A stretch of 44,340 bases of DNA from a phage. Position numbers and translations under genes: made by a program. The notes beneath the pieces are model-generated. The model was not told the origin of the DNA. It ran no database searches and was given only the letters and a program-made list of their open reading frames with translations. Position 1 is the stretch's first letter; every line of letters starts with the position of its first letter. Shown here one piece after another: positions 231 through 37,411 of this stretch. The stretch lies in NCBI GenBank assembly GCA_030393635.1, contig GCA_030393635.1_4352.1. The stretch is one strand, 5' to 3'.

Positions 231-259
231 TTGATTTCCCATTATTCGCAATGTATACT
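231..259 (+). promoter_or_regulatory. Sigma70-like promoter for the plus-strand early operon
   Basis: TTGATT (231-236), 17-bp spacer, TATACT (254-259), about 33 nt upstream of the ATG at 292. Confidence 0.45.
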
Positions 260-291
260 TGGTTTCGTTAACTGATAATGAGGGTTTGAGA

Positions 292-462
292 ATGACGCAG
301 AATGAAGTGGCTGAGCGTATCGGGGTTACTCGTCGCACGCTGAATAACTGGTTAAAGAGTGGGAAGTTCCCTGATTGCTGTATTCGCATTATGGGCCGCC
401 GTCAGCCGGGTACGTTCGACCCGGAGAAAGTGGAAGCGTGGATTAAGGAGAATGTGAAATGA
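292..462 (+). CDS. Small HTH DNA-binding protein (MerR/AlpA/excisionase-like fold)
   Basis: ORF 259..462 with ATG at 292 preceded by GAGGG; the EVAERIGVTRRTLNNWLKSGKFP segment reads as a helix-turn-helix. Confidence 0.6.
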   Translation: MTQNEVAERIGVTRRTLNNWLKSGKFPDCCIRIMGRRQPGTFDPEKVEAWIKENVK

Positions 463-692
463 CCGAATTTCAGTCACGCGTATTTACGGCAGTCGTTTCG
501 TTAACACGTAAAAAAGGGTCGTGCAGCGTTATCGACTTGCGCCGTAGTTATTTTAAGTACTATAGTTCAGCCATTATTGAAGGGTCGTTGGAGGTACTGG
601 TTAAATCCGGTATCGTGAAAAATGTTGGCGGGAAATATAGCGCCGTTGCTGAAGTTCGCGGAATGACCGCTACTTTAGAAGACCTGGAATAA
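459..692 (+). CDS. Hypothetical protein with acidic C-terminal TLEDLE tail
   Basis: 77-aa ORF; its ATG overlaps the upstream stop (ATGA); C-terminus is TATLEDLE. Confidence 0.5.
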   Translation: MTEFQSRVFTAVVSLTRKKGSCSVIDLRRSYFKYYSSAIIEGSLEVLVKSGIVKNVGGKYSAVAEVRGMTATLEDLE

Positions 693-751
693 AAGAAAGC
701 CCCGACGCGGTGAACGCCGAGGCCAAATTACTTGCTGAAGGAATACACGAT

Positions 752-2992
752 ATGTCCGATGTGATTTTATCCTACTCGTGGTCCCGTCGCAACGCGCGGG
801 CAGAGAAAAAGGATATAAACGTCAGAACCACACACACAGCAACACTTGACGACCTGAAAGAGTTAATTCAGCCGCTAGATGCTGTTCGTGACGGGATTAA
901 CCCTAAGACTGCCCCCGGCTATATCACAGCCGCGTGCGACTCTATGCACAGCACCGTAAAAGACCCGGAAACCGGCGACTTTAAGCAAGCGCGCAAAGGC
1001 TTCTTCTATCGCTGCGACGCGTCTGTAAGCAAATCGTCGCTGGCGTATCTGGACTTCGACAGTGCGACGCCGGAAGAGTATCAGGAAGCTGTGCGTCTGG
1101 TTAAGCGCAGCCGTAAAGCCATGTGCCTCTACACTACGGCATCGCATACCGACGAATCGCCGCGCTTTCGCGTCGTCATGCCGCTGGTGCGCCCGGTTGA
1201 AGGCGGTGACATCATCCGTGTTCGCCATGGATTACTTGAGCACTTCTTCAAAGGCATGGGCGCTGACCGCAGCGGGTTCACTCTTTCGCAACCGATGTAC
1301 CTGCCGCCGGTCGGCTCTACCGTTATCTGGTCGCGCCGCAACGACCTGATTGACCCGGACGAGTTACTGGAAGGCATCCCGACCGTTGACGTTAGCAGCG
1401 CATCGGATTACCAGATACCGGAAGAACTACGCACCGCGTTTACTGACGCGTTCGAAGCACTGGCGTTCGAGTACGGCGGCATCATGACACCGCGTGGCCT
1501 AAAAATGCCAGCCACACCAGAGCATGCAGAAAACTACAGCGACCCGACGCCGCGTCCGGACGACTTCCTGCTGTGTTTCCCGCGTGAAGGATATGAAGCG
1601 CCGAACGTAACCATGATCCACGACACCGACATTACGGCGACCGAAGGCATGTCGCCGAAAGAGGTGTGGAAATACGCGTGCGATGCGACCGGGCTGCCGT
1701 TCAGTGAAGTCGCTGAGGCAATCGGCTGGGGTGCGCGAGAGTCCGTTTCATGCAGCCTTGACGACCTGGAAGACGACGAGGACCCAGAGGAGGACGAGTT
1801 ACCTGAACCGGTAAAGGCTGATTTTGTCGTCGAGGGGTACATGCCGTCGGATTGTATCTGGGACATCGTGGGGGAATCTGGCACGTACAAATCGTTCTAT
1901 ACGCTGGGGATGATGTACCTGAGCGCCGCCGGATACCGGTTTGCGGGTGCGGATACGCAACGTTGCCACCATTTCTATATTGATGGGGAGGGTGGTGCAG
2001 CTACACGCACCCGTATTGATGCGCTCGCAGCTAAGTATGGCGAGGAAGGTAAAGATTATGTACATGTCATCGATATGGGTGAAGTCGGAAAACTGAAAAG
2101 CCTGATTAAGTTGATGCGTGAAACTGCAGGCGACGAACCAATCGGCATGGTCGCATTCGACACCCTCAACCAGACGCTGGCCCTGACGATTGATAAGTTC
2201 GACGAGAACAGTTCATCGACGGCAATCGGCATGGGTAAAGTTATTGCCATCCTGAAAGAAGTACGTGATGCGACTAAAGCCGCGGTAGGCGTTGTCCACC
2301 ATACGCCGAAGGGCGGAAAGAAAGCCCGTGGTAGCGGGGCGCTGTATGCGGGTGTTGACGTGGAACTGACAATTGAACGTGCAACCGACCGTCAAATAAA
2401 CGTATACCACTCAAAATTTAAGCACGGGCCCCAACAGAAGACCGTTGGCATGGTGCTTGAGTCGGTACAGTTCCGTGAAGCGCCGCCGCCGAAAGAGTAC
2501 CGCGCGGTTGAGTTCCTCGGTAGCACAGAGGAATACGGCCCAATCGTAAACCTCGACCTGCCTGAGCCGCACAAGGCGCTTGTGCTGATGCCGTGGGGCT
2601 TCGAGCCGTTCAAAACTGACGAGGAGAAAGAGCGGGAAGAAGGGCTGACAAAGGAAGGTAAAGAAAACGTAAAGAATGCTGTAAAACGCGGGAAGGATGA
2701 AGGGCGTAAGGAATCAATACTCGCCGCACTGGAAGACCTGCAACAGTCCGATGACACCGGACGAGGTTTTACGCAACGGCAGATAGTGGCGAACTCAGGC
2801 GACCACGCCATCACAAACTACCATCTTGAGAAGATGCTGAAAGACGGTGAGTTGATGCTCGGGTGCGATGTTAACGGTGAAGTTATACCAGGCACATACC
2901 GGATACCGGAAAAGATGGGTGACAGATTAAGGCCAAAGACAATATACGAGCCGAATGAAATGCTGACAGTGACAGAGGAGGATTTGGAATAG
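752..2992 (+). CDS. DNA primase/helicase (N-terminal primase-like region plus RecA-fold ATPase)
   Basis: ORF 710..2992 (GTG at 710; ATG at 752 has GAAGGA 9 nt upstream). Walker A GESGTYKS, Walker B-like VAFDTL, VVHHTPKGG motif; acidic linker DDLEDDEDPEEDE; C-terminal TEEDLE. Confidence 0.75.
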   Translation: MSDVILSYSWSRRNARAEKKDINVRTTHTATLDDLKELIQPLDAVRDGINPKTAPGYITAACDSMHSTVKDPETGDFKQARKGFFYRCDASVSKSSLAYLDFDSATPEEYQEAVRLVKRSRKAMCLYTTASHTDESPRFRVVMPLVRPVEGGDIIRVRHGLLEHFFKGMGADRSGFTLSQPMYLPPVGSTVIWSRRNDLIDPDELLEGIPTVDVSSASDYQIPEELRTAFTDAFEALAFEYGGIMTPRGLKMPATPEHAENYSDPTPRPDDFLLCFPREGYEAPNVTMIHDTDITATEGMSPKEVWKYACDATGLPFSEVAEAIGWGARESVSCSLDDLEDDEDPEEDELPEPVKADFVVEGYMPSDCIWDIVGESGTYKSFYTLGMMYLSAAGYRFAGADTQRCHHFYIDGEGGAATRTRIDALAAKYGEEGKDYVHVIDMGEVGKLKSLIKLMRETAGDEPIGMVAFDTLNQTLALTIDKFDENSSSTAIGMGKVIAILKEVRDATKAAVGVVHHTPKGGKKARGSGALYAGVDVELTIERATDRQINVYHSKFKHGPQQKTVGMVLESVQFREAPPPKEYRAVEFLGSTEEYGPIVNLDLPEPHKALVLMPWGFEPFKTDEEKEREEGLTKEGKENVKNAVKRGKDEGRKESILAALEDLQQSDDTGRGFTQRQIVANSGDHAITNYHLEKMLKDGELMLGCDVNGEVIPGTYRIPEKMGDRLRPKTIYEPNEMLTVTEEDLE

Positions 2993-2999
2993 GGAAAAA

Positions 3000-3022
3000 G
3001 AAAGGGGCGTTAAGCCCCTTCA
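3000..3022. terminator. Hairpin between convergent genes
   Basis: GGGGC-gttaa-GCCCC stem-loop with A-run upstream and TT downstream. Confidence 0.5.
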
Positions 3023-3225
3023 CCAAACGCCAGCCACTTGGCGTCTACTTGCAGCACTTCTGCCAGTCTAAACAGCGTCGCAGGGCGGACGTCCTGAGTT
3101 ACTCCGAGCGCAAGCTGGTTAATTGCGCCCTGGGAAACGCCGGCCAGAACAGCCAGACGGCGCTGGGAGATTCCGAGTTCTTTACGGCGTTGTTCTACAC
3201 GGATGCCTAGTTCAGATGGTTGCAT
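3010..3225 (-). CDS. XRE-family (Cro/CI-type) HTH transcriptional regulator
   Basis: 71-aa ORF; ISQRRLAVLAGVSQGAINQL is a typical XRE HTH; AAGGAG RBS 7 nt upstream of the ATG on the minus strand. Confidence 0.8.
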   Translation of the reverse strand: MQPSELGIRVEQRRKELGISQRRLAVLAGVSQGAINQLALGVTQDVRPATLFRLAEVLQVDAKWLAFGEGA

Positions 3226-3256
3226 GTCAATTACTCCTTAGTTAGTTTATATGTGA

Positions 3257-3318
3257 ATAGTACCATATTAATTATTTTAGAAAAGCCCATTGACATCATG
3301 AATAGTTCGCTATTATAG
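3257..3318. promoter_or_regulatory. Divergent promoter/operator region between the XRE regulator and the small ORF at 3352
   Basis: Minus strand: TACTAT -10 overlapping palindrome AATAG-TACC-ATATT (3256-3269). Plus strand: TTGACA (3290-3295), palindrome AATAG-TTCG-CTATT (3301-3314), -10-like TATAGT. Confidence 0.55.
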
Positions 3319-3351
3319 TGAGCCTATACTAAACGAGAGGAGAGAAGCAAA

Positions 3352-3501
3352 ATGACCAATAACCGCAAAGCAAAGATTCTGTTAGGCCTTGATGTCGCAT
3401 TTGGAACTAAAGAAACCGCGCGCTATCGCGTAAGCAACAATCGTGTTGGCTTCTTCGACAAAGTGACAGGCCAGTTAGTTAAAACCGTTAAATATAAATA
3501 A
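3352..3501 (+). CDS. Small hypothetical protein (49 aa)
   Basis: ATG at 3352 preceded by strong SD GAGAGGAGAG; not in the ORF track because it is under 60 aa. Confidence 0.5.
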   Translation: MTNNRKAKILLGLDVAFGTKETARYRVSNNRVGFFDKVTGQLVKTVKYK

Positions 3502-3516
3502 ACAGGAGAACAAATA

Positions 3517-4008
3517 ATGTTAGAGAAATTCTTAGTATTAATTGAGCGTGGTGTAGTTGCACTTGAACTGATTGCCGCGAACAGTGTGAAACAACCGGTG
3601 TATGAACTTAAGGCAGAGGCAAAAGTAGCCGATAAGGTTCGTGATGTTGTTGTAAAAGAAGCAACAAAAGAAGTCCCGGTCGAAGGTGAAGACATCGTTG
3701 ACACTAAACCGGCAGAAGAAGAAGAGAAGCCAAAACGCAAGCCGCGTAAAGCTAAAGTAGAGGAGCCAACGCCAGAGCCGGAGGAAGAGAAAGAAGAGGT
3801 CGATTACCAGTCTCTTCGTGACCAGATTCAGGCTATCGACGATGCGATTAACGAAGGTCCGAGCGATGCCGCGTGCGATGATTCCGATGAACTGCTGGAA
3901 GAGTTCACCGGTAAGAAAATGAAGATTGCCGCGATTAAAGACGAAGACCTGGCTGAATATCTGGAACGCCTGACTGCAATCAAGAACAAGTATTTCGAAG
4001 AAGAATGA
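3517..4008 (+). CDS. Acidic K/E-rich hypothetical protein
   Basis: 163-aa ORF with RBS AACAGGAGAA; long acidic/lysine-rich low-complexity segment. Confidence 0.6.
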   Translation: MLEKFLVLIERGVVALELIAANSVKQPVYELKAEAKVADKVRDVVVKEATKEVPVEGEDIVDTKPAEEEEKPKRKPRKAKVEEPTPEPEEEKEEVDYQSLRDQIQAIDDAINEGPSDAACDDSDELLEEFTGKKMKIAAIKDEDLAEYLERLTAIKNKYFEEE

Positions 4009-4023
4009 TTTATCAGCGGCCTT

Positions 4024-4046
4024 CGGGCCGCTTTAACTGAGGGTAA
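4024..4046 (+). terminator. Intrinsic terminator
   Basis: GCGGCC-ttcg-GGCCGC stem followed by TTT. Confidence 0.55.
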
Positions 4047-4050
4047 AGAA

Positions 4051-4323
4051 ATGATTTACCAACTCTACCGCGCCGTAGATAGGCGGGATAGCACAGAGGC
4101 GTTGTGGCTATTACGTGCGCCGTCTGGTGCGCACCTGATGGAAGAGATGGCGTACTTAGGCAAAGTGCCACGGCCTAAAGATATAGGCCGTCACGTGTCG
4201 CAGATTAAGCGCACGACTTTCGCAAAACCAGACTTTTATGTCTTCGAGTTGATGTATGGGTGGGCGATGCACTGCCATCACCAGACGCGACATTTAATCG
4301 ACCAGTGGGAGAACAGGGTATGA
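4051..4323 (+). CDS. Hypothetical protein
   Basis: 90-aa ORF with upstream GAGGG. Confidence 0.5.
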   Translation: MIYQLYRAVDRRDSTEALWLLRAPSGAHLMEEMAYLGKVPRPKDIGRHVSQIKRTTFAKPDFYVFELMYGWAMHCHHQTRHLIDQWENRV

Positions 4324-4469
4324 CAAGGTACGCGATAATCGTAGAAATAGACGGTAAAGACCAGGAGCATAGTCGCTACGCCCGTTTGGATGAAGCTAGG
4401 TATGTCTTCTATACATTCGGATTCGAACGCAGTTTCAATAATGCGCGTATTGTGGAGATTACGAAATGA
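4320..4469 (+). CDS. Small hypothetical protein
   Basis: In-frame ATG at 4320 with GGGAGAACAGGG upstream; overlaps the upstream stop and is coupled to the next gene. Confidence 0.45.
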   Translation: MTRYAIIVEIDGKDQEHSRYARLDEARYVFYTFGFERSFNNARIVEITK

Positions 4470-5707
4470 TTTTAAAAGAACGCGGTGGCAATAACGATGT
4501 TCACGCCCTACTGTCACCGTCAGGCGCTAAAAAGTGGCTAAGCTGCGCCGCATCACTGGCCTGTGAAAAAGATATTCCTAACACGTCCGGCAAAGCTGCC
4601 GTATTAGGCACAGCTATGCACACCATAGCTGAGATGCACCTTAACCAGTACATCAAAGGTACTGCGTTGCCGTTAGAGCGTGAAGTCGGCGCTTACGTGC
4701 TGGATGAGGGCAAGGGCCAGATTAAGGCGCTAATCAGCCCAATTAAAGACGCGGTACTCATTACGGCGGACATGATTGAGCAGGTGCGCAAGTACACCGA
4801 CTACTGCAAAGCGATTATAGACGTGGCGACTTACGCCAAGCTGGAGATGCGCGTCAATCTTACTGAGGTATTGCATCCGGGGTATGAAGGCGTTGAGACG
4901 TTCGGAACCGCTGACCTTGTTGCCGTTCAGGAACTGGCAAACACCGACGGGCACATGCTCATTATTGGCGACCTGAAAACTGGACGGCATCGTGTCGAAG
5001 CGAAAGAAAACAAGCAGCTTATGCTTTATGCTCTCGGTGTTTATCGCCGACTCAAGAGACGCTATAACATAACAGTTGTTCGTCTGGTTATATTCCAGCC
5101 GTATGCTGGCGGTGCGTCGGAGTGGGACATCTCGGTTGAAGGTCTGGAACTGTTCGCTAAGTTCGCACGGAAACGTGCACTGTTAGCCCTTGATGCATAT
5201 TTCCGGGGCAAGAAGAACCTGAAAGCGTCGGACTTCAGGCCGTCGGTCGATGGTTGTCAGTGGTGTCGGTTCTCTGAGCAATGCGCCGTGCGTACAAAAA
5301 CCGTTAACGCGATACTGGCGGAAGAACTGGAGGGCGGCTTTGCACTCGAACTGACGCCTGAGCAACTCGTAGCTGAGTACGAGAAGTTGCCGCTGTTGCG
5401 ACAGCACATCGACAAGGTTGAAAAAGCTATGGCTGCCGCGCTGCATTCCGGTAAGAAAGTGCCTGGGTACAAACTCGTTGAGGGTAAGATGGGCAACCGT
5501 GCGTGGAAAGATTCCGATGCGGTATTCGAGAAGTACGGCGCTATGTTGCAAAAGGTAGTTCTCATGACGCCGACCGAAGCGGTTAAAGTGATACCGGAAG
5601 AAGAACTGAAAAACTTCATTACCCGTAAGCCGAGCGCACCATGTGTCGCAACGGCAGACGACAAACGTCCTGAGTGGAATCAGGTAACAGAGGAGGATTT
5701 AGAATAA
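4466..5707 (+). CDS. PD-(D/E)XK exonuclease, Cas4/RecB-like with putative Fe-S cysteines
   Basis: 413-aa ORF; N-terminal Cys (WLSCAASLAC) plus C-terminal C-x2-C-x5-C (GCQWCRFSEQC) as in Cas4-type nucleases; C-terminal TEEDLE. Confidence 0.65.
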   Translation: MILKERGGNNDVHALLSPSGAKKWLSCAASLACEKDIPNTSGKAAVLGTAMHTIAEMHLNQYIKGTALPLEREVGAYVLDEGKGQIKALISPIKDAVLITADMIEQVRKYTDYCKAIIDVATYAKLEMRVNLTEVLHPGYEGVETFGTADLVAVQELANTDGHMLIIGDLKTGRHRVEAKENKQLMLYALGVYRRLKRRYNITVVRLVIFQPYAGGASEWDISVEGLELFAKFARKRALLALDAYFRGKKNLKASDFRPSVDGCQWCRFSEQCAVRTKTVNAILAEELEGGFALELTPEQLVAEYEKLPLLRQHIDKVEKAMAAALHSGKKVPGYKLVEGKMGNRAWKDSDAVFEKYGAMLQKVVLMTPTEAVKVIPEEELKNFITRKPSAPCVATADDKRPEWNQVTEEDLE

Positions 5708-5711
5708 AGTG

Positions 5712-5740
5712 TTGACACCTGAATAGTTAGCTATTATATT
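5712..5740 (+). promoter_or_regulatory. Sigma70-like promoter with embedded palindrome, upstream of the SSB gene
   Basis: TTGACA (5712-5717), 17-bp spacer containing AATAG-TTAG-CTATT (5722-5735), TATATT (5735-5740). Confidence 0.6.
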
Positions 5741-5798: not shown

Positions 5799-6425
5799 AT
5801 GGGACTGAAACTGAATCTGCGTAAAGTAAACACTGCATGGGTTAACGTATTCGAACGCGAAAAAGACCGCGAAAACGATGATGGCTCAATCACTAAAGGC
5901 CAGTACAGCGCAACGATTATCCTGCCGCCGGACCATGCTCAAATCGACGCGCTCTACGACACTGTTTACGCTGTAGTTGAGGGAGCGTTAGGCGCAGCCG
6001 CCGCCGAGAAATGGATGAAGTCCAACTACGGCGAAGGTAAGCACATGGATAAATGCGCGATTAAAGACATTGCCGAGCGCGACAATCCGTTTGAAGACTT
6101 CCCGGAAGGCTTCTACTTCAAAGCGAAAGCACAGAAACAGCCGCTGATTGTAACCTCTAAAAAAGGCGAGGCTCAGGTAGAGCAGGACTTCAATGTAGAC
6201 GGCGAACAGATTGAAGGTGAACAGGTTTACAGCGGCTGTGTTGCCAACGTAAGCGTTGAAATCTGGTTCAGCCAGAAATACAAAGTCCTCGGTGTTAACC
6301 TGCTGGCAATTAAATATGTTGGCGAGGGTAAAGCGTTCGGTGGTTCTAAAGTCGCCGCAAGTGTCGACGACCTCGAAGACGACGAAGATGATGAAGCACC
6401 GCGCCGCGAACGTCGTCGCCGTTAA
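5799..6425 (+). CDS. Single-stranded DNA-binding protein (T7 gp2.5-like)
   Basis: 208-aa ORF with acidic DDLEDDEDDE segment near the C-terminus, resembling the gp2.5 tail, followed by a basic RRERRRR terminus. Confidence 0.55.
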   Translation: MGLKLNLRKVNTAWVNVFEREKDRENDDGSITKGQYSATIILPPDHAQIDALYDTVYAVVEGALGAAAAEKWMKSNYGEGKHMDKCAIKDIAERDNPFEDFPEGFYFKAKAQKQPLIVTSKKGEAQVEQDFNVDGEQIEGEQVYSGCVANVSVEIWFSQKYKVLGVNLLAIKYVGEGKAFGGSKVAASVDDLEDDEDDEAPRRERRRR

Positions 6426-6636: not shown

Positions 6637-8838
6637 ATGAGCTACTTATACCTGGACTTTGAAACATTCTCCGAAGCCGATTTAAAGAAAGTCGGTTCCT
6701 ACGCTTACGCCGAACATCCAACTACCGAAGTGCTTATCTGTACCTATGCTTTCGATGACGAGCCTGTGCAGGTATGGGATTGCACCGACGGCAGCGACAT
6801 GCCGGGCGATTTGCACCGCGCGTTACGCCGTCTGGTTAAGCCAAACAGCCGCATCAAGATGGTGTGGCACAACGGCTCAATGTTCGATCGCCTCATCATG
6901 AAGCACTGCTGGGGTTTTGGTATTCCGGTAAGCAACACCATTGATACTATGATTTGGGCGTTTCGTCACGCGCTGCCGGGTTCACTTGATGCGTTATGTG
7001 AAGTGCTGGGTGTATCCGCGGACAATGCAAAAGATAAACGCGGTAAGGCACTGATTCAACGTTTTTCTAAACCGACACCGAAGAACTACAAAATCCGCCG
7101 CTACACCGCCGAAACACACCCGGACGAGTGGGCGCTGTTCATCAAGTACGCCGTGAGCGACATCACTGCTATGCGTGAGGTCTTCCATAAGCTGCCGCGG
7201 TGGGGTAACTCCGAGTTCGAAGACCGTGTACTGGAACTTGACCAGTTAATCAATGACCGTGGGTTTAAGGTTGACGTTGCGCTGGCAGAAGCCGCTATTG
7301 AAGCCGTGGAGAAACACAAAGCGCAGTTACAGGAAGAAGCCCAACGCAAATACGGCGGCTCGCTTACCGGTAAGGACTTTCTGCCGATTCTGCGTGAACT
7401 CGCACCCGCGCACCGCATCCACAACGCGCAGAAGTCAACGCTTAACGACCTGCTGGCAGATGATGACTTACCAGACGACGCCCGCACGATTATCGAAATG
7501 CGCCTCGGGGCTGCGTCAACAGCGTCCACGAAATATAACCCGCTGCTGTTGGGCCGCTCGTCTGACGACCGTCGCCGCGGCTGCTTGCAGTACGGTGGGG
7601 CGAAACGGACTCTGCGATGGGCGGGTAAAGGCTTTCAGCCGCAGAACCTGGCGCGCGGGTACTATCACGATGATGAACTGGATAAAGGCATTTCTGCGCT
7701 ACTTAAAGGTCGTGCTCATCGCCGTTTTGACGTAGCCAAGCTGACGGCATCGACGGTTCGTAGCTGCATTATCCCAGAGGCAGGGCATAAGTTTGTCGTC
7801 GCCGATTACTCTAACGTTGAAGGCCGTGGGCTTGCGTGGCTGTCGGGCGAAGAAACCGCGCTTGATACGTTCCGCGCCGGACTGGATATTTACTGTGTAA
7901 CCGCGGGCAAGATGTTCGGTATGGACCCTGATGACATTAAGAAAAACTTCAAGGAAATCAGACAGATAGGCAAGGCCTGCGAGCTTGGCCTCGGCTATGA
8001 GGGAGGCGTCGGAGCATTCGTTACGTTCGCTAAAAACTTAGGTCTTGACCTTATTGAGATGGCAAAAACAATGGACGGTACTTTTCCTGATCATATATGG
8101 GCGGCTACCGCACGTGGTTATGAATGGGCGCGTATCCAGGAAGCAAAGCGACCCCCGCATCCTGGTGAAAAGGACGACAGACCATCGTATATTCTGGACA
8201 AGAAAGTGTGGCGCACATGCGACGCAATCAAGCGTATGTGGCGTGAGTCTCATCCGGAAACAGTAGCTTTCTGGTGTGACCTTAAAGACGGAATTTTAGC
8301 CGCTGTTCGTAATCCTGGTCGTGAATTTTGGGCAGGGGCACACTTGCGCAGGAATGGGGAAAGGGCTATCCGCATATGGCGCACCGTAGAAAACGATTCA
8401 TCCGGTAGGAAAGTTCCAGGTTGGTGGCTGTGTATGGAGTTGCCGTCAGGCCGTATCCTTTCGTATCCGGGAATCGGAGTTAGCGTGACAAAGGAAACAG
8501 ACGAAGACGGACGGGTAAACACGAATGTGCGAATCAAGTATCAGGGTGAAAACCAGTTAACCCGCCAATGGACTACCCTGTACACACACGGCGGCAAAGC
8601 CTGTGAAAACATTGTTCAGGCGCTGTGCCGTGATTTGCTGGCTAATGCCCTGCTGAACGTAGAAGCAAACGGCTACCCGATTGTGCTTCATGTTCACGAT
8701 GAAATTATCTGCGAGACGCCAGATTTACCGGAATACAATGTCGCAGAGCTTGAGCGATTGATGTGCGAATTACCGGAATGGGCTGAGGGGTTCCCTCTTG
8801 TGGCAGAAGGTGCGGAGATGAAGCGTTATGCCAAGTAA
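6637..8838 (+). CDS. Family-A DNA polymerase with N-terminal 3'-5' exonuclease
   Basis: ORF 6583..8838; ATG at 6637 after AAGGAAAAAG; Exo I-like LDFETFS; typical Pol I length and layout. Confidence 0.85.
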   Translation: MSYLYLDFETFSEADLKKVGSYAYAEHPTTEVLICTYAFDDEPVQVWDCTDGSDMPGDLHRALRRLVKPNSRIKMVWHNGSMFDRLIMKHCWGFGIPVSNTIDTMIWAFRHALPGSLDALCEVLGVSADNAKDKRGKALIQRFSKPTPKNYKIRRYTAETHPDEWALFIKYAVSDITAMREVFHKLPRWGNSEFEDRVLELDQLINDRGFKVDVALAEAAIEAVEKHKAQLQEEAQRKYGGSLTGKDFLPILRELAPAHRIHNAQKSTLNDLLADDDLPDDARTIIEMRLGAASTASTKYNPLLLGRSSDDRRRGCLQYGGAKRTLRWAGKGFQPQNLARGYYHDDELDKGISALLKGRAHRRFDVAKLTASTVRSCIIPEAGHKFVVADYSNVEGRGLAWLSGEETALDTFRAGLDIYCVTAGKMFGMDPDDIKKNFKEIRQIGKACELGLGYEGGVGAFVTFAKNLGLDLIEMAKTMDGTFPDHIWAATARGYEWARIQEAKRPPHPGEKDDRPSYILDKKVWRTCDAIKRMWRESHPETVAFWCDLKDGILAAVRNPGREFWAGAHLRRNGERAIRIWRTVENDSSGRKVPGWWLCMELPSGRILSYPGIGVSVTKETDEDGRVNTNVRIKYQGENQLTRQWTTLYTHGGKACENIVQALCRDLLANALLNVEANGYPIVLHVHDEIICETPDLPEYNVAELERLMCELPEWAEGFPLVAEGAEMKRYAK

Positions 8839-8977
8839 ACTGATTATCGCGGTACTGGCGGGATTCGCCGCCGGTGTCTACTGTCACGAGGGCCAATACG
8901 GCATGATTGTCGCCGTATTGGGTATGTTCATAGCAATTTATCTGTGGGTGCTGGAATGAAAATTTACTGGTTTTATG
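8828..8977 (+). CDS. Small membrane protein (49 aa)
   Basis: ORF overlapping the polymerase 3' end; hydrophobic IIAVLAGFAAGV and IVAVLGMFIAIY segments. Confidence 0.35.
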
Positions 8978-9041
8978 AAGAAGACTGTAGAATCTGTCCG
9001 CGCTGTGGGATTGAGCATACGAAACGGGAGGGATGCGTATT

Positions 9042-9194
9042 ATGACAATGTTTGTATTCTGGACAATCGTAACCCTGCTCGCACTGTTACTCGGTGCGGG
9101 AGTAGCCGCGGTGTTCTGTTACGACCTGTTCTTTAAGTTTGTCGGTGTTGCCGTTCTAAGCGGAGCTTTCCTTACTTGGGTTCTACGCTCATGA
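9042..9194 (+). CDS. Small membrane protein (50 aa)
   Basis: Hydrophobic MTMFVFWTIVTLLALLLGAGVAAV; stop overlaps the next start as ATGA. Confidence 0.4.
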   Translation: MTMFVFWTIVTLLALLLGAGVAAVFCYDLFFKFVGVAVLSGAFLTWVLRS

Positions 9195-9475
9195 CTAAAG
9201 AGGGCCGCATACAGAAATACGCAAAAGACCGATTCGAGGCCATCGGCGGCCTCGTTCGTAAGTTATCGTACGAGGGGCGCTCCGGCGCTCCCGACCTGCT
9301 GGTAATTCTCCCCGGCAGCATAGTCTGGTTCGTCGAGGTTAAGAAAGACGAAAACACGAAGCCAGACCCGCACCAGCTACGGGAACATGAGCGGATGCGC
9401 AAACGTGGCGCGAATGTTTTTGTCGTCGGTTCGTTTAAACAGGTTGACGACCTAATAGCGAACTATTATAGTTAG
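9191..9475 (+). CDS. VRR-NUC domain nuclease (PD-(D/E)XK)
   Basis: ORF 9176..9475 with ATG at 9191; GAPDLLVI...VEVKK matches the VRR-NUC catalytic core. Confidence 0.65.
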   Translation: MTKEGRIQKYAKDRFEAIGGLVRKLSYEGRSGAPDLLVILPGSIVWFVEVKKDENTKPDPHQLREHERMRKRGANVFVVGSFKQVDDLIANYYS

Positions 9476-9505
9476 TCCTACACCAACAATATAAGGAATT
9501 GAGAA

Positions 9506-9697
9506 ATGAAACACGAATATGACCGAAAACCAGCACGTGACATCGTACCGGGCGACATGATTTTCAACGTTAAGACACGCCAGCCTGTTGCCGTTGATAC
9601 GGTGTTCGTCGAGTCGAACGGTAAACTGGTTATCGAAGATGTAACGGGTAACGTTACCGCGTTTGGACGTAAAGAGTTAGTTCTGGTGGCTAAATGA
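9506..9697 (+). CDS. Hypothetical protein
   Basis: 63-aa ORF with AAGGAATTGAG RBS. Confidence 0.5.
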   Translation: MKHEYDRKPARDIVPGDMIFNVKTRQPVAVDTVFVESNGKLVIEDVTGNVTAFGRKELVLVAK

Positions 9698-10716
9698 ACT
9701 ATTACAACGAATGGGATAAAGGCGCAGCCGCGTGGCTGCGTGAGTTGATAAAACAGGGTCACATACCTTTTGGAGTTGTAGATGAAAGAAGCATTACCGA
9801 AGTTAAGCCAGAAGACCTTGACGGGTTCACCCAGTGTCATTTTTTCGCTGGTATCGGCGGCTGGCCTCTCGCGCTCAGACTTGCGGGAGTTTCGGAAGAT
9901 ACGCCTCTCTGGACGGGAAGCCCGCCTTGCCAACCGTTTAGCGCGGCAGGAAAGCAACTCGGACAGTTCGACCCAAGACACCTCGCGCCTGTATTCCTCG
10001 ACCTCATCAGCGAGTGCCGCCCTCCAGTCCTCTTTGGGGAACAGGTTGCGCCAGCAATTGCAAAATCGTGGATGTGCGATTTACAAACTCACCTGGAAGG
10101 AGAAGACTACGCCGTCGGGTTTGCCGTACTCCCAGCTTGTAGCGTCGGCGCACCGCACAAGCGCGACAGATTGTTCTTTGGAGCGCATAGACTGGCCCAC
10201 ACCCGCAGTATCACCGATAACAAACGATGTGAATATGCGCAGTACAGACGGCAGAACGAAACCGAACAAACTGGGTTGGGCCGCTGCGATGGCGGCATGG
10301 CCCACTCCGACGACACGCGACCACAAGGACGGGAAAGAGTGCCTGAACGTGCCAACGAACAGTCTGCTGGGGCGGGAAGTGTGGAAAGCAAGTTGGCCGA
10401 CGCCACGAAGCGCCGACGGGGAGAAGAATGTCCGGACACTGAACGGCGCGTTGTCCGAGATTCAGAGGAAGGGTGGGCCCCAGGACGTGGCACAAGCGGC
10501 GGCTATAACACAACCAATACGCATAACGGCTTCTGGTCAGATGCTGACTGGCTCGGATGCCGGGATGGAAAATTCAGGCCAGTTGAATCCGGAACATTCC
10601 CGCTGGCTAATGGGATACCCGCCAGAGTGGGACGATTGCGCGGTTACGGCAATGCCATCGTCCCGCAAGTAGCCGCTGAATTTATAAAGGCATTCATGGG
10701 GGCGGTAAATGAGTAA
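9694..10716 (+). CDS. DNA cytosine-5 methyltransferase-like gene with apparent frame disruption (see finding)
   Basis: Frame 1 carries FFAGIGG, PCQPFSAAGK, FGEQV, GAPHKRDRLFFG and the C-terminal GNAIVPQVA; the overlapping frame 2 (9782..10672) carries three WPTP motifs and RWLMGYPPEW. Confidence 0.6.
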   Translation: MNYYNEWDKGAAAWLRELIKQGHIPFGVVDERSITEVKPEDLDGFTQCHFFAGIGGWPLALRLAGVSEDTPLWTGSPPCQPFSAAGKQLGQFDPRHLAPVFLDLISECRPPVLFGEQVAPAIAKSWMCDLQTHLEGEDYAVGFAVLPACSVGAPHKRDRLFFGAHRLAHTRSITDNKRCEYAQYRRQNETEQTGLGRCDGGMAHSDDTRPQGRERVPERANEQSAGAGSVESKLADATKRRRGEECPDTERRVVRDSEEGWAPGRGTSGGYNTTNTHNGFWSDADWLGCRDGKFRPVESGTFPLANGIPARVGRLRGYGNAIVPQVAAEFIKAFMGAVNE

Positions 10717-12133
10717 GTTCCAAAGGCGCGAGTACCAAAAGCTCATGACTTCGTTCATGTTGCAACACCCGCGCTGTAATATCTGGGCTAGCATGGGTGC
10801 AGGGAAGACGGGCAGCGTATTGTGGGCATTAAACCGCCTGTTCCGCAACGGCCAACTTAATGACGACGACCGTGTGTTAATCCTTGCCCCGTTACGAGTT
10901 GCATCCTGTACGTGGCCTGCAGAGCAAGAGAAATGGCGGTTCCCGTGTCTGAGTGTCGTCGATGCAACTGGTTCAGAGAAGCGCCGTATCGCGGCGCTGG
11001 AGTCAGACGCTAACGTGGTCTGTACAAACTACGAAGTTATCGAGTGGCTGATTGACTACTACGGCAAAGACGACTGGCCTTTTACGGTTATCGTTGCCGA
11101 TGAAAGCACGAAGCTGAAGTCATTCCGTAGTCGTTCTGGCGGGAGTAAGCGAGCGAAGGCGCTAAGTAAGGTGGCGTTCGGAAAGGTTAAGCGTTTCATC
11201 AACCTGACAGGTACACCATCACCAAACGGCCTCAAAGACTTGTGGGGCCAGAACTGGTTTATCGACGCTGGCGAGCGCCTGGGTTCTTCATACACCGCGT
11301 TCACCGACCGATGGTTTAACTCTGTGCAGAAAGGCAAATCAGCGATGGCGCGTGAGTATCATGCGCGACCGGGTGCGGATAATGAGATTCACCAGAAGAT
11401 GAAGGACATTAGTCTCACGATTGACGCCGCCGAGTGGTTCGGGTGTGAAGCGCCGATTATCGTACCGGTTGAAATAGACCTGCCTAAGAAAGCGCGCCAG
11501 GCGTACATAGATATGGAGGAGAAGCTATTCGCAGAACTGGAGAGCGGGGAAGTTGAAGCGGCTAACGCCGCGGCGAAGACGTCAAAGTGTCTGCAGATTG
11601 CATCCGGTGCTGTATATGTATCGGGGCCAGACGGAGAAGCAACGAAAGACTGGGAGAAAGTGCATGACACGAAACTTGATGCGCTGGAGTCAATTGTGGA
11701 GGAGTTACAGGGCGCGCCGTTGCTTGTGGCCTATCAGTTCAAGCACGAACTGGAGCGCATCCTTAAGCGATTCCCGCAGGCGCAGGCGTTCGCCAAAGGT
11801 GCTAAGGGCAATAAGCAGATGGAAGCGTGGAACCGCGGTGAAATCGAAATCTTATGCGTCCACCCAGCGTCAGCCGGGCATGGTTTGAATTTACAGGACG
11901 GCGGCCATCATCTGGCGTTCATCTCGCAAGGGTGGAACCTTGAGCACTATTTGCAGGTTGTCGAGCGTATAGGCCCTGTCCGCCAGAAACAGGCGGGCCA
12001 CGAGCGCCCGGTGTTCCTCTACCACATCGTTGCTAAAGACACGCTGGACGAGGTTGTTGCCGCCCGTACCGACGAGAAGAAATCGGTACAGGAAGAATTG
12101 CTTAATTACATGAAGAGACGAGGTAAGAAATGA
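10709..12133 (+). CDS. SNF2/DEAD-like ATP-dependent helicase
   Basis: 474-aa ORF; motif I GAGKTG, motif II ADESTKLK, helicase C-terminal region. Confidence 0.75.
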   Translation: MSKFQRREYQKLMTSFMLQHPRCNIWASMGAGKTGSVLWALNRLFRNGQLNDDDRVLILAPLRVASCTWPAEQEKWRFPCLSVVDATGSEKRRIAALESDANVVCTNYEVIEWLIDYYGKDDWPFTVIVADESTKLKSFRSRSGGSKRAKALSKVAFGKVKRFINLTGTPSPNGLKDLWGQNWFIDAGERLGSSYTAFTDRWFNSVQKGKSAMAREYHARPGADNEIHQKMKDISLTIDAAEWFGCEAPIIVPVEIDLPKKARQAYIDMEEKLFAELESGEVEAANAAAKTSKCLQIASGAVYVSGPDGEATKDWEKVHDTKLDALESIVEELQGAPLLVAYQFKHELERILKRFPQAQAFAKGAKGNKQMEAWNRGEIEILCVHPASAGHGLNLQDGGHHLAFISQGWNLEHYLQVVERIGPVRQKQAGHERPVFLYHIVAKDTLDEVVAARTDEKKSVQEELLNYMKRRGKK

Positions 12134-12309
12134 AACTTAATACAGCGTTAACAGTTTTGTGGCTATTCTGCCGAGTGGGGCCTGGGTCCGTATTATTATT
12201 GTGCGGTATCTTGGCCGAAAAAACATTTGATGCGGGCTTGATGGTGGGTGCAGGAATGATGTTGTTGGCTGCGGGCATTGCAGAATTGTATAAGGATTTT
12301 AAGAAATGA
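12130..12309 (+). CDS. Small membrane protein (59 aa)
   Basis: ATGA overlap with the helicase stop; two hydrophobic segments. Confidence 0.4.
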   Translation: MKLNTALTVLWLFCRVGPGSVLLLCGILAEKTFDAGLMVGAGMMLLAAGIAELYKDFKK

Positions 12310-12443
12310 ACATCATAGCCCCGATTCCGGCATTGCAAAAACGTATCAAGGAACTCGAAGAAGAGGTTCTACGACTACGGCAGCAAAGAGACGCAGCTAA
12401 TGCGCAACTGGCGTTTGTGCTGGAGAAGTTATCAGAAGAGTAG
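12306..12443 (+). CDS. Small coiled-coil protein (45 aa)
   Basis: ATGA overlap with the previous ORF; KELEEEVLRLRQQRDAANAQL. Confidence 0.35.
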   Translation: MNIIAPIPALQKRIKELEEEVLRLRQQRDAANAQLAFVLEKLSEE

Positions 12444-36869: not shown

Positions 36870-37411
36870 TCCTCTACCTCGCCCATGTTCGTCGTAACGA
36901 TTTTACCTACCGGCTCCGCCACGGTGAACACAATCTCAGTTGGCGCTGTTTCTTCGGTGGATTCAACTGGTTTCTCTTTGCTTAACCCCAGCTTGGCAGC
37001 AGCAAACGTGGCGGAGATACCCGCGGCACCCGTCTCAGTGAAATATGCCTCTTCCAGCGCCTGCGCCGTTTCATAGGCTTCCGCGAAAGCCGGAATCTCA
37101 CGCAGCCACAGCTTAATAATCGGGATAGTGACGCCGATATGTAAGGCGAAGCGGGCTAGTGACGGAGGTTTATCCTGAATAAGCGGGCGTTCGTCGCCCT
37201 TGGACGTAGGTACGAGTTCCCACGACGTTCGGTCAAAGAACCTGATTAACTCGTCGCAATAGTCCGGGTCCCACAATGCCGCGGAATTACGGGATGACTG
37301 GTAAAGGCTCTGTTTACCGCGCGGTCGTTTACGGCGACGGTTGGCGCTAACAGCCTCTTCATGTGCAGCTTGCACCACCTCAGGTGATGGTTGCTTAAGT
37401 GTAAGTTTCAT
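36866..37411 (-). CDS. Terminase small subunit
   Basis: 181-aa ORF overlapping the large terminase start; HTH-like LARFALHIGVTIPIIKLWLREIPAF. Confidence 0.6.
   Translation of the reverse strand: MKLTLKQPSPEVVQAAHEEAVSANRRRKRPRGKQSLYQSSRNSAALWDPDYCDELIRFFDRTSWELVPTSKGDERPLIQDKPPSLARFALHIGVTIPIIKLWLREIPAFAEAYETAQALEEAYFTETGAAGISATFAAAKLGLSKEKPVESTEETAPTEIVFTVAEPVGKIVTTNMGEVEE

Follow-up and report, generated by a model that had tools for sequence, protein, structure and literature searches.

In bacteria, the acidic disordered segment and hydrophobic tip at the C-terminus of SSB (DDDIPF in E. coli) serve genome maintenance as a general-purpose docking peptide, with one protein showing the peptide and many partners having pockets for it. 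The contact between lambda Exo and Beta is made via a folded C-terminal domain of the annealase. In the phage T7 replisome, contacts are made through flexible acidic tails (PMC12593628; PMC10359462), with those of gp4 (..DWSNDTDF) binding basic patches of the polymerase gp5 (PMC12593628), and that of gp2.5 (..EADEDGDF) binding both polymerase and helicase (PMC10359462; PMC5686142). For Enc34 ORF6, an SSB of the DUF2815 family, the passages on the tail describe a crystal in which the last traceable tail residues enter the groove of a neighbouring SSB and bury 842 A2, a crystal-packing contact, with a tail-in-groove arrangement likewise in two other DUF2815 crystals and T7 gp2.5; these same passages treat the SSB tail only and leave tails on other module proteins unmentioned (PMC5686142).

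The window analysed here, a single stretch of 44 kb (44,340 nucleotides), is the genome of an E. coli phage of the genus Kagunavirus (Guernseyvirinae), and its gene order exonuclease-SSB/annealase-PolA is the exact order of the duf2800-gp2.5-polA module named by Steczkiewicz et al. 2021 (PMC8093625). A short acidic peptide recurs on four replication proteins of this genome, and judging from its sequence behaviour we consider it probable (roughly 0.6) that the peptide serves as a shared docking motif for a co-evolving phage-encoded receptor, by which the replication machinery would be assembled.

The motif and the proteins that carry it

The initial annotation had proposed that one C-terminal peptide (EEDLE) is common to a 77-aa protein (p77), the primase-helicase and the exonuclease, and that DDLEDDED occurs both in the SSB and in the primase-helicase linker; all three tails ([E/L]EDLE) and both internal copies were located as described, the SSB copy lying beyond the end coordinate of that annotation though named in its text (Table 1). 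When all six frames of the window are read for ORFs of 60 aa or more, [DE]DLE occurs five times, always in these four replication proteins, compared with 0.11 expected when the four are shuffled (0/20,000 shuffles), and the three C-terminal copies compare with 3e-4 expected from the same four proteins (0/20,000 shuffles). Only p77, the primase-helicase and the exonuclease end in [DE][DE]LE among window ORFs of at least 30 aa. Leu is written CTG, TTG and TTA in the three tails, and Asp as GAC or GAT; the primase-helicase and exonuclease tails are identical at 19/23 nt, with GAGGAG in both, and the p77 tail matches the other two at merely 11-13/23 nt. Given these differences in Leu and Asp codons and the divergence of the p77 tail, the resemblance lies at the protein and not the DNA level, and the peptide, as read from its sequence, is a short linear motif with the core [S/T]-[D/E]-[D/E]-D-L and an acidic flank.

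Table 1. Replication-module features and motif copies in the window
Feature	Position	Strand	Remark
77-aa protein p77 (phrog_5169)	459..692	+	winged-helix domain (predicted), then disordered acidic tail
p77 tail copy 1 TATLEDLE	666..689	+	C-terminus
Replicative primase-helicase	752..2992	+	ORF opens GTG 710; probable start ATG 752
Primase-helicase linker copy SLDDLEDDEDPEEDE	1754..1798	+	internal; contains DDLEDDED
Primase-helicase tail copy 2 TVTEEDLE	2966..2989	+	C-terminus
DUF2800 / PD-(D/E)XK (Cas4-like, 4-Cys) exonuclease	4466..5707	+	Pfam PF10926, PF12705
Exonuclease tail copy 3 QVTEEDLE	5681..5704	+	C-terminus
gp2.5-like / Enc34-ORF6-type ssDNA-binding and annealing protein (DUF2815)	5799..6425	+	Pfam PF10991
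SSB motif copy SVDDLEDDEDDE	6360..6395	+	contains DDLEDDED
SSB basic cap APRRERRRR + stop	6396..6425	+	directly after acidic motif
Family A DNA polymerase	6637..8838	+	Pfam DNA_pol_A + 3'-5' exonuclease; candidate receptor

The smallest carrier, p77, has homologues only among close relatives and gave no match in a Pfam search. Its AF2 model (mean pLDDT 86, topology H-H-H-strand-strand) resembles the winged helices of LexA-N, MotA, IclR and Rpa32C in Foldseek (TM 0.6-0.7, all with E of at least 0.007), and behind this confidently predicted domain the last ~15 residues drop to pLDDT 55-65, which fits a flexible display of the tail. L73, E74 and L76 never vary among 21 homologues, at least 90% of which also keep D75; Jerseyvirus versions end in ATPEDLE.

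In the primase-helicase, the alignment to phrog_3228 ('replicative helicase-primase') begins at residue 15, and the annotated protein of Bas73 begins MSDVILSY. Residues 366-536 correspond to Pfam AAA_25, and SLDDLEDDEDPEEDE lies between the primase region and this helicase domain. A C-[ST]-D-E-D-L-[DE]-D-like motif occupies the equivalent linker site in Jerseyvirus and some other lineages and is absent from the primase-helicase of several lineages examined (VSiP, phiEap-2, JL1), so that the linker motif is an accessory copy; the C-terminus, by comparison, is DL plus 0-3 residues in every related contig from which the gene was recovered. The exonuclease matches PF10926 (3.7e-65) as well as PF12705, and among 60 diverse homologues C27, C267 and C273 are invariant and C264 near-invariant. 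D411 and L412 of its tail are invariant in an alignment reaching down to 35% identity, the linker before them varies, and 118/120 close homologues end in DLE. A disordered C-terminal region has been described for a DUF2800 homologue (bioRxiv 10.64898/2026.07.14.737667).

The SSB was assigned by Pfam (PF10991, 3.6e-15), by a sequence match to PDB 4jg2, a DUF2815 protein, and by the annotation of its relatives as 'Gp2.5-like', its own predicted model reaching a pLDDT of 36. The motif begins 7 residues past AFGG, the last conserved globular motif, with the anchor Leu 9 residues past it, a position equivalent to AYDEDED/AWDEDED of the Enc34 and Chi SSBs. Homologues down to 61% identity keep D191, L192, E193, D194 and D195 without exception, and every SSB of the clade reads [ST]D[DE]DL[DG]DDD at this site. 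The basic RRERRRR end, singled out early as unusual, proved to be a trait of the Guernseyvirinae/Dhillonvirus clade only: relatives carry in its place a polyampholyte extension, 20-90 aa long, in which acidic and P-R/K runs alternate, and the compared SSBs from outside the clade lack the cap and end with the acidic tail. Since the SSB motif is internal in this clade, a free carboxylate cannot contribute to its recognition, which sets it apart from the tails of T7 and of E. coli SSB.

Conservation and co-variation of the tails across phages

Conservation of the tail in related phages, which the initial annotation had put forward as a check, was borne out in 79 related IMG/VR contigs, where primase-helicase, exonuclease and SSB almost universally carry the motif core. 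In these contigs and additional isolates, whose exonucleases are 43-95% identical, the C-termini of primase-helicase and exonuclease read [DE]DL plus 0-3 aa, [ST]D[DE]DL directly follows the fold of the SSB, and linker positions adjoining the motif show an entropy of 2-3 bits; S/T at position -3 is conserved across the three protein families. The 35 distinct primase-helicase tail-coding variants make use of all 6 Leu codons, both Asp codons and 9 Ser/Thr codons, and tails within Chi, and within LAh_7, likewise differ synonymously. Amino acids that stay fixed while codons vary across relatives argue for selection on the tail at the protein level.

More distant phages with the duf2800-gp2.5-polA module have lineage-specific tails, each common to two to six proteins. 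Chi ends its primase in DEDEV, its exonuclease and TerS in DDDEV and its SSB in WEDEV, six proteins of Aeromonas LAh_7 end in D[DE][DE]I, and in Strep Javan29 the SSB ends in DFLN and the primase-helicase in DFLD. Other tails are DDEDFL or DDDDFLN in Gram-positive phages of the module, DDLA and DDLM in Bacteroides BF486P2, and DLV twice in BMP-1. Up to six proteins bear the tail in relatives, including an SNF2-type helicase and, in Casjensviridae, the small terminase. Tails were more alike within than between genomes (0/5000 shuffles, for tail-bearing proteins picked by eye). In the proximal motif, SSB and exonuclease share the type of anchor residue in 13/13 genomes and the very residue in 12/13 (W/F in Redjac), with L/L, W/W, W/F and F/F as observed states, three of them inside Casjensviridae alone. 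Part of this co-variation reflects shared ancestry, because the genes for exonuclease, SSB and primase are co-inherited, and independent concordant anchor changes amount to only a handful (F to L, F to W). Phages of one host also differ, with DEV in Chi and DLE in Jerseyvirus (both Salmonella), and DLE in Kagunavirus and DL[KS]x in Dhillonvirus (both E. coli), which argues for a receptor encoded by the phage.

Candidate receptors and alternative readings

A docking motif of this kind would be displayed on flexible ends or linkers of unrelated DNA-handling proteins, here the winged-helix protein, the primase-helicase (with two copies), the Cas4-like exonuclease and the gp2.5-like SSB, and all copies would compete for, or pass between, one receptor site. 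The large number of displaying proteins implies one or few receptors, and tethering could join priming and unwinding, end resection, ssDNA coating and annealing, and DNA synthesis in one assembly. We infer that the motif binds protein, with two candidate receptors that may serve singly or together: the groove on the concave beta-sheet of the SSB and, by analogy with T7, a basic surface on the polymerase. In the former case a client protein would hold the SSB by its groove, from which nascent ssDNA could displace the tail, as T7 suggests, and an exonuclease tail placed in the groove would provide exonuclease-annealase coupling.

A strict T7 arrangement, as in the initial annotation, with tails docking only on a basic patch of the polymerase as a single hub, is possible, though we consider it doubtful. 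Of the core module proteins, the polymerase alone is always without the tail, ending in RYAK or YxKD in every lineage compared, but this ..Y.K[D] terminus is a conserved part of the structure and the missing tail may thus be a constraint and not the sign of a receptor. It has a conserved basic segment at residues 131-156 (AKDKRGKALIQRFSKPTPKNYKIRRY), in the exonuclease domain of the polymerase subfamily, where 9 distant phages all have K132, G136 and R155; the gp5 patches that receive the gp4 tails (PMC12593628), however, are unmappable on it, since BLASTP gave no usable alignment between T7 gp5 and this polymerase. The T7 gp2.5 tail interacts with polymerase and primase-helicase (PMC5686142; PMC10359462), whereas the only structural observation in the SSB family puts the tail on the SSB groove (PMC5686142). 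A polymerase hub would also hardly explain the tail on the small terminase of Casjensviridae.

Every tail-bearing protein binds DNA, so the acidic tails could instead act in cis, each folding back as a DNA mimic on its own DNA-binding surface to block non-specific binding or sharpen specificity, with the resemblance arising from similar physicochemical needs. Tail-less Enc34 ORF6 bound dsDNA with about the affinity that it had for ssDNA, the latter being unchanged (PMC5686142), and in T7 the tail and ssDNA are reported to compete for one surface (PMC10359462; a reference title in PMC5686142). We nevertheless regard independent mimics as unlikely, for they would not account for exact anchor and terminal residues (L; V; I; F-L; F) that agree across unrelated folds of one genome yet change from genome to genome, and the S/T kept at -3 would be left unexplained.

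Still less probable is mimicry of the host SSB tip or another hub peptide, by which the tails would recruit or block host replication-repair proteins: an acidic run with a near-C-terminal hydrophobic residue does resemble bacterial SSB tips, and Gram-positive phages of the module end in DDEDFL or DDDDFLN, but none of the tails reproduces the I-P-F tip, and phages sharing a host genus differ in tail. A nucleic-acid element (Shine-Dalgarno, terminator, promoter or recombination hotspot) or a recent gene conversion that made the peptide incidental would account for the likeness of the primase-helicase and exonuclease tails and their GAGGAG, but can practically be set aside, as this GAGGAG is misplaced for a ribosome-binding site (the next genes lie 90 nt downstream, the SSB, or on the opposite strand), none of the promoter- or terminator-like elements falls within the tail codons, the p77 tail is too dissimilar and the codon variation across relatives contradicts it.

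Comparison with known systems

The bacterial SSB interactome is inverted in topology relative to the docking arrangement that we favour, in which many proteins display the peptide, and the peptide here lacks I-P-F. With lambda Exo-Beta and RecE-RecT this locus shares an adjoining exonuclease and annealase, suggestive of a functional pair; unlike in Exo-Beta, the coupling proposed here would run through a short acidic peptide of the exonuclease that is identical to the tail motif of the annealase itself. The Enc34 ORF6/DUF2815 SSBs (PDB 5ODJ, 5ODK, 5ODL, 4JG2, 4KLK) belong to the same Pfam family, PF10991, and likewise have an acidic tail straight after ..FG[GE] with a hydrophobic anchor 8-9 residues past it, but the Enc34 and Chi proteins end in that tail (..WDEDEV), whereas the SSB here has a single DDLEDDED capped by APRRERRRR.

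The T7 replisome has the same set of a gp2.5-fold SSB, a bifunctional primase-helicase and a family A polymerase, and there too unrelated proteins of one phage have a common acidic tail with a hydrophobic anchor. In T7 the anchor is a C-terminal Phe, whereas here it is a Leu followed by Glu, up to three trailing residues (0-3) are allowed, and in the SSB the motif is internal with a basic cap after it. The motif here is also found on a recombination exonuclease and a small winged-helix protein, whereas gp6, the T7 exonuclease, shows no such tail in its sequence, and no thioredoxin-binding domain is identifiable here, unlike in the T7 system. The idea of a common docking peptide like the tails of gp4 and gp2.5, put forward in the initial annotation, is strongly supported by conservation, synonymous codon turnover and co-variation, but the C-terminal aromatic residue that is the hallmark of those tails is lacking. 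By analogy, the tail system of this phage is most likely a variant of the T7 acidic-tail principle.

The acidic peptide within the replication module

The window has approximately 90% nucleotide identity to Escherichia phages M01, CR01 and Bas73 and to many Kagunavirus-named records, and hundreds of Salmonella Jerseyvirus are found among its relatives, which together indicate that it is a Guernseyvirinae siphophage genome. A DUF2800 nuclease, a DUF2815 SSB and a family A polymerase (PolA) are encoded by adjacent genes on one strand, with no separate ssb gene, and this exonuclease-SSB-PolA order is that of the "duf2800-gp2.5-polA module" of Steczkiewicz et al. (PMC8093625). ATG 752 is favoured as the start of the primase-helicase because a terminator-like hairpin overlaps the GTG at 710.

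Features of the window and of related phage loci (coordinates local to each locus)
Locus	Feature	Coordinates	Strand	Remarks
Window	HTH_17 gene	259-462	+	replication/recombination module
Window	p77	459-692	+	no Pfam match; phrog_5169
Window	terminator-like hairpin	698-724
Window	primase-helicase	ORF from 710, probable start 752, end 2992	+	AAA_25; phrog "replicative helicase-primase"
Window	GC-rich hairpin	3000-3021		between convergent primase-helicase and HTH genes; resembles a shared terminator
Window	HTH repressor-like gene	3010-3225	-	convergent; in module
Window	sigma-70-like promoter	3290-3319		near-consensus (11/12 matches); upstream of the 3352 gene
Window	163-aa acidic protein	3517-4008	+	phrog_3127; a few genes 5' of exonuclease
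Window	DUF2800/PD-(D/E)XK exonuclease	4466-5707	+	in module
Window	sigma-70-like promoter	5712-5740		near-consensus (11/12 matches); directly after exonuclease stop
Window	SSB, Enc34-ORF6-type (gp2.5-like, DUF2815)	5799-6425	+	PF10991 (Enc34_ssDNA-bd) 3.6e-15; match to DUF2815 structure 4jg2
Window	family A polymerase	6637-8838	+	in module
Window	SNF2-type helicase	10709-12133	+	further along module
Window	small terminase	36866-37411	-	ends GEVEE
Window	67-aa ORF	43392-43595	-	phrog_27229; ends ..VYPDLEDDGD
L007 (Chi)	small protein, phrog_3127-type	9173-9589
L007 (Chi)	small terminase	15869-16438		ends ..VDDDEV
L012 (LAh_7)	small protein, phrog_3127-type	4084-4491
L012 (LAh_7)	small terminase	10545-11144		ends ..DDDEEI
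L095 (Redjac)	small terminase	13863-14483		ends ..DDDDEV
L006 (phi7401PVL)	small protein, phrog_3127-type	7604-7966
L006 (phi7401PVL)	exonuclease	7963-9177
L005 (Dhillonvirus and relatives)	SSB with polyampholyte extension	9721-10464		also L072, L056, L061, L088
L002 (Jerseyvirus and related contigs)	polymerase with insertion	10041-12425		also L049, L070 pol ORFs

All of the peptides described in the initial annotation were found in the sequence: the C-termini TATLEDLE in p77 (a 77-aa winged-helix protein), TVTEEDLE in the primase-helicase and QVTEEDLE in the exonuclease, the copy SLDDLEDDEDPEEDE in the primase-helicase linker, and SVDDLEDDEDDE followed by APRRERRRR in the SSB. The motif-bearing peptides of the module proteins read RPEWNQVTEEDLE, NEMLTVTEEDLE, RGMTATLEDLE and AASVDDLEDDEDDE. 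Among the ORFs of 60 aa or more read in six frames over the whole window, [DE]DLE occurs five times, always within these four proteins, and besides the three tails no ORF of at least 30 aa in the window ends in [DE][DE]LE. From shuffling of the four proteins, the motif is expected 0.11 times in total and 3e-4 times at a C-terminus; none of 20,000 trials attained the 5 and 3 observed. The resemblance is not a DNA repeat, since the three tails differ in their Leu and Asp codons and that of p77 has only 11-13 of 23 nt in common with the other two. By gene spacing, the GAGGAG present in two tails lies in a position unsuited to a ribosome-binding site, and in an element scan none of the promoter-like or terminator-like elements listed in the table overlapped the tail codons.

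Other candidates in the window were rejected. The 67-aa ORF has a sole homologue in the fetched loci, which ends ..YWEEDEEY, and its likeness to the DDLEDD motif is probably due to chance; neither its ending nor that of the small terminase is conserved in relatives. No significant similarity was found that would make p77 a stand-alone copy of the C-terminal region of the primase-helicase.

Conservation and lineage-specific forms of the peptide

Conservation within the clade was followed in 79 loci recovered from IMG/VR by a profile search with a closer 12-sequence DUF2800 alignment (a 60-sequence alignment had no conserved stretch and was not used for locus search), whose exonucleases are 43-95% identical to that of the window. 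ORFs were called in these loci as well as in fetched isolates, with BLASTP used to identify the module proteins; another set of exonuclease homologues, all >92% identical, is useful for tail counts only. In every locus with intact recovery, [DE]DL plus zero to three residues forms the C-terminus of both the primase-helicase and the exonuclease (e.g. TEEDLE, TEGDLE, EEDDLEN, EDDDLAD, TDDDLKD, TDSDLDD, SDDDLSN, TDEDLSNE), with rare exceptions that resemble frameshifts, read-through or single substitutions. Exonuclease D411 and L412 are invariant in an alignment reaching down to 35% identity, and the residues immediately preceding them vary. The SSB carries [ST]-D-[DE]-D-L-[DG]-D-D-D throughout the clade, soon after the last conserved motif of its fold (..AFGG). 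When exonuclease, primase-helicase and SSB were aligned on DL (which is 100% by construction), one consensus emerged, with a small hydrophobic residue at -4, Ser/Thr at -3 (97% in the exonuclease, 69% in the primase-helicase and 85% in the SSB), acidic residues at -2 and -1, and usually another acidic residue after D-L. Taken together, the distinct tail-coding variants use all six Leu codons, both Asp codons and nine for Ser/Thr, and this free codon variation is the mark of purifying selection on the peptide. The remaining copies are more narrowly distributed: p77 is restricted to Kagunavirus and Jerseyvirus, where [LP]EDLE is retained, and the primase-helicase linker copy is accessory, since it reads DEEDLDDEE in Jerseyvirus and TDEDLDDD or TDEDLEDE in other lineages, and is absent from further ones.

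The initial annotation had also called the basic end of the SSB unusual, which is correct: it is specific to the clade, whereas SSBs outside the clade end in the acidic tail. Kagunavirus and Jerseyvirus SSBs continue from the motif into APRRERRRR, and those of Cornellvirus, phiEap-2-like phages and Dhillonvirus into 20-90 residues in which acidic runs alternate with P-R/K-rich runs, with tandem repeats in Dhillonvirus. The extension in Dhillonvirus and its relatives is a polyampholyte of approximately 40-90 aa with repeat units such as DDDDEDDKPRKSKKSKRR, and SSB length across the clade is 208-288 aa. Because the clade's SSB motif is internal and capped, the sequences indicate that a free C-terminal carboxylate cannot be required for recognition here. 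The cap may mask the motif of the SSB itself, provide additional contacts to DNA in annealing or act in inter-SSB zippering; as a general receptor of acidic tails it was rejected, given that lineages with uncapped SSBs also have common tails.

The SSB and the exonuclease have a further feature in common, an acidic-hydrophobic motif 7-10 residues past their last conserved globular motif (D[GD]E[PA]FG[GE] and DKRP[AE]x, respectively). The anchor residue of this motif is of the same type in both proteins in 13 of 13 genomes and identical in 12, and Casjensviridae alone contain three anchor states, concordant each time. Both proteins have Leu as the anchor in Kagunavirus, Jerseyvirus, Cornellvirus, Dhillonvirus and Klebsiella N133. 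For SSB/exonuclease, Chi has W/W, Redjac W/F and LAh_7 YW..F/YW..F; F/F or F..L/F..L occurs in RcRios and in the phages of Staphylococcus, Streptococcus, Bacteroides, Paenibacillus and Corynebacterium. In the SSB, the anchor stands 8-9 residues past ..FG[GE] and is accompanied by an acidic tail (window FGG-SKVAASVDD-L, Enc34 FGE-GRVDTSDA-Y, Chi FGE-GRVDTSDA-W), and the Leu of the window's SVDDLEDDED is the positional equivalent of the Tyr/Trp of Enc34 and Chi. Over 139 representative DUF2800 clusters (at most 50% identity), a strict acidic-hydrophobic tail anchor is found in 60%, vs 17% of interior control segments, and Asp plus Glu make up 26% of the last 20 residues of the representatives vs 14% elsewhere. 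In Staphylococcus phi7401PVL, the proximal motif is AEDDFDKL in the exonuclease and AEDDFDEL in the SSB; a basic extension, KKLKRTVYKHESKSIK, follows it in the exonuclease, overlapping the start of the SSB gene and recalling the window's SSB cap.

By tblastn, the exonuclease family is present in 1,493 of 50,697 phage records, from phages of many bacterial phyla, and other lineages carry tails of their own.

C-terminal tails of module proteins outside the clade, with T7 for comparison
Phage	SSB	Primase-helicase (Chi, Redjac: primase)	Exonuclease	Other
Chi	..WEDEV	..FDDEDEV	..DDDDEV	SNF2 helicase ..VWDDEE; small terminase ..VDDDEV; conserved small protein upstream of exonuclease ..GEEDDV
Redjac	as Chi	..DVWGDD	as Chi	set as in Chi
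Aeromonas LAh_7				D[DE][DE]I on six proteins
Streptococcus Javan29	..DDDFLN	..GDDFLD
Bacteroides BF486P2	..YDDLA	..EDDLM
Staphylococcus phi7401PVL	..DDEDFL	..LEDLI
Bordetella BMP-1	..AADLV		..VEDLV
T7	gp2.5 ..DEDGDF	gp4 ..SNDTDF	gp6, no such tail

Among ORFs of at least 60 aa in Chi (102) and LAh_7 (86), only these genes have at least four acidic and no basic residues in their last eight. Tails are significantly more alike within than between genomes (0 of 5000 label shuffles, for proteins chosen by eye), also when the DL clade, i.e. the Guernseyvirinae/Dhillonvirus relatives with a Leu anchor, is collapsed to one genome. The small terminase of Casjensviridae ends with the acidic tail of the same phage's replication proteins, a hint that packaging is linked to the replication/recombination hub in this family.

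Two further proteins differ between these lineages and the window's clade. The phrog_3127-type small protein, directly 5' of the exonuclease in the Chi, LAh_7, Redjac and Staphylococcus loci, has a conserved C-terminal helix (..E[ED]hxxxhxxh..) in common with that of the window; it ends with the module tail in Casjensviridae (..GEEDDV, ..AEDDI, ..DDDDDI) and with YFEEE, HVEEE or YDIEE in the window's clade. The SNF2-type helicase has a basic end, ..NYMKRRGKK, throughout the DL clade, and in Casjensviridae an acidic tail comes after this basic stretch (..RRKKSKNKGVWDDEE, ..KRIAALADGDDDEI).

Candidate docking sites and rival explanations

The tail bears the marks of a short linear interaction motif for a common, co-evolving partner: it lies in disordered sequence, its core is conserved, its codons turn over freely, and it changes concordantly among unrelated proteins of the same genome. 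The proteins that bear it are structurally diverse. The p77 model (mean pLDDT 86) is a winged helix of three helices and two to three strands, with low confidence over the last ~15 residues; its closest structures are winged helices of LexA-N, MotA, IclR and Rpa32C type (TM 0.6-0.7, no E below 0.007), so that p77, as modelled, consists of a small domain for DNA binding or adaptor function and a flexible tail. The exonuclease has conserved cysteines C27, C264, C267 and C273, in the four-Cys pattern of Cas4/AddB-type iron-sulfur nucleases, and the C-terminal region of a DUF2800 homologue from a BASEL phage, reported to be a type IX retron trigger, has been described as disordered (bioRxiv 10.64898/2026.07.14.737667). 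An AF2 model of the full-length window SSB, from a separate 12-sequence alignment, reached a mean pLDDT of 36, too low for use.

Structural precedents point to where such a peptide might dock. In the crystal of the DUF2815 homologue Enc34 ORF6 (tail ..FGEGRVDTSDAYDEDEDEW..), the last traceable tail residues enter a neighbouring SSB at its concave seven-stranded sheet, burying 842 A2, and like contacts are described for two other DUF2815 crystals and for T7 gp2.5 (PMC5686142). In T7, gp4 tails dock onto basic patches of the polymerase (PMC12593628), and the gp2.5 tail contacts both polymerase and helicase (PMC12593628; PMC10359462). By analogy, we infer that the hub would be the SSB groove and/or a basic polymerase surface, to which the exonuclease, the primase-helicase and p77 would be tethered via the peptide that the SSB also carries; tethered in this way, the exonuclease would link the resection of ends with loading of the annealing protein. 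The most specific form of this reading, to which we give roughly one chance in three, is an "inverted SSB-tip" system, in which all peptides dock at one site, most likely the ssDNA-binding groove of the SSB, and are displaced by ssDNA. The SSB would then be a universal hand-off adaptor for replication, recombination and packaging, with up to six clients (among primase-helicase, SNF2-type helicase, Cas4-like exonuclease, SSB, small conserved protein, winged-helix protein and, in Casjensviridae, small terminase), and the Guernseyvirinae/Dhillonvirus cap would modulate the competition.

It is possible that the polymerase is the only hub. Its residues 131-156, a strongly basic segment (AKDKRGKALIQRFSKPTPKNYKIRRY) within the 3'-5' exonuclease domain, are a candidate receptor site for acidic tails and only that; K132, G136, L139, I140, F143 and R155 are invariant across nine distant module-bearing phages, and BLASTP of the window polymerase against T7 gp5 gave spurious short matches only. 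The polymerase itself never carries the tail in the phages compared, which may be a structural constraint, its C-terminal ..RYAK or ..FYxKD being conserved. A polymerase-only hub is weakened by this possible constraint and by the tail on the Casjensviridae small terminase. Separately, the polymerase is 1032-1041 aa long in several Jerseyvirus and related contigs, by an insertion that resembles an intein; this insertion, placed within the conserved RQIGKA|CELGLGY segment, runs from C-LHRHTQVL to ..VAHN, with a Cys next; the SE2 record annotates its polymerase as two CDSs.

Acidic tails acting in cis as DNA mimics would account for the acidity of the peptide, but leave the concordant anchors unaccounted for. 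The partner of the peptide is probably phage-encoded, because phages of the same host differ in their peptide (Chi vs Jerseyvirus on Salmonella, Kagunavirus vs Dhillonvirus on E. coli), and the same diversity disfavours a host factor as the target. The codon diversity contradicts a nucleic-acid origin of the resemblance, whether as Shine-Dalgarno sequence, terminator or product of gene conversion, and together with the gene spacing and the element scan it excludes one.

Significance and comparison with known systems

Detailed understanding of replisome organisation is limited to a few model phages (T7, T4), and to our knowledge no study has addressed the protein contacts of the duf2800-gp2.5-polA module, whose phages infect hosts ranging from Enterobacteria to Staphylococcus, Streptococcus, Bacteroides and Corynebacterium. 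A common co-evolving peptide offers an experimental handle on the coupling of unwinding, priming, resection, annealing, synthesis and possibly packaging. It would also explain the conserved disordered C-terminus of DUF2800 nucleases, a family whose retron-trigger member is reported to have an unknown role in the phage life cycle (bioRxiv 10.64898/2026.07.14.737667). Lineage-specific tails could, moreover, be a compatibility code that limits or permits the exchange of replication genes among phages.

Within the literature found on Enc34/DUF2815, DUF2800, gp2.5-like proteins and Kagunavirus/Jerseyvirus replication, there is no description of tails common beyond the SSB; this coverage is incomplete, and a prior description is possible. 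Relative to it, the new elements are the presence of the peptide on the recombination exonuclease and the winged-helix protein and, in relatives, on the SNF2 helicase, the conserved small protein and the small terminase; its lineage-wise co-variation across the module of ~1,500 deposited phages; and the internalised and capped SSB copy of Guernseyvirinae/Dhillonvirus.

Known docking peptides differ from these tails in their defining residues. Unlike the bacterial SSB-Ct (DDDIPF), the window SSB ends in RRERRRR, and none of the proteins has a P-F tip; unlike the beta-clamp motif (QL[SD]LF or QLxLxL), the tails (T-E-E-D-L-E) have one hydrophobic residue in an acidic context. Likeness to T7 is greater. 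The window SSB has, by family match, the gp2.5 OB-fold (PF10991; 4jg2 match), which the Enc34 ORF6 fold is reported to resemble (PMC5686142); an acidic, clade-conserved tail is present on both the SSB (SVDDLEDDED) and the primase-helicase (SLDDLEDDED in the linker, TEEDLE at the C-terminus); and a family A polymerase and a primase-helicase are both encoded. In contrast to gp2.5 and gp4, which end in DF, the window's tails end in D-L-E, and its SSB motif is internal. Because the defining C-terminal Phe is absent and polymerase binding is only a candidate here, the two systems are not to be equated; the T7 gp2.5/gp4 tail pair is nevertheless the closest known system, with which the window's tails would work alike, and a hub with multiple clients would widen the two-client tail principle of T7.
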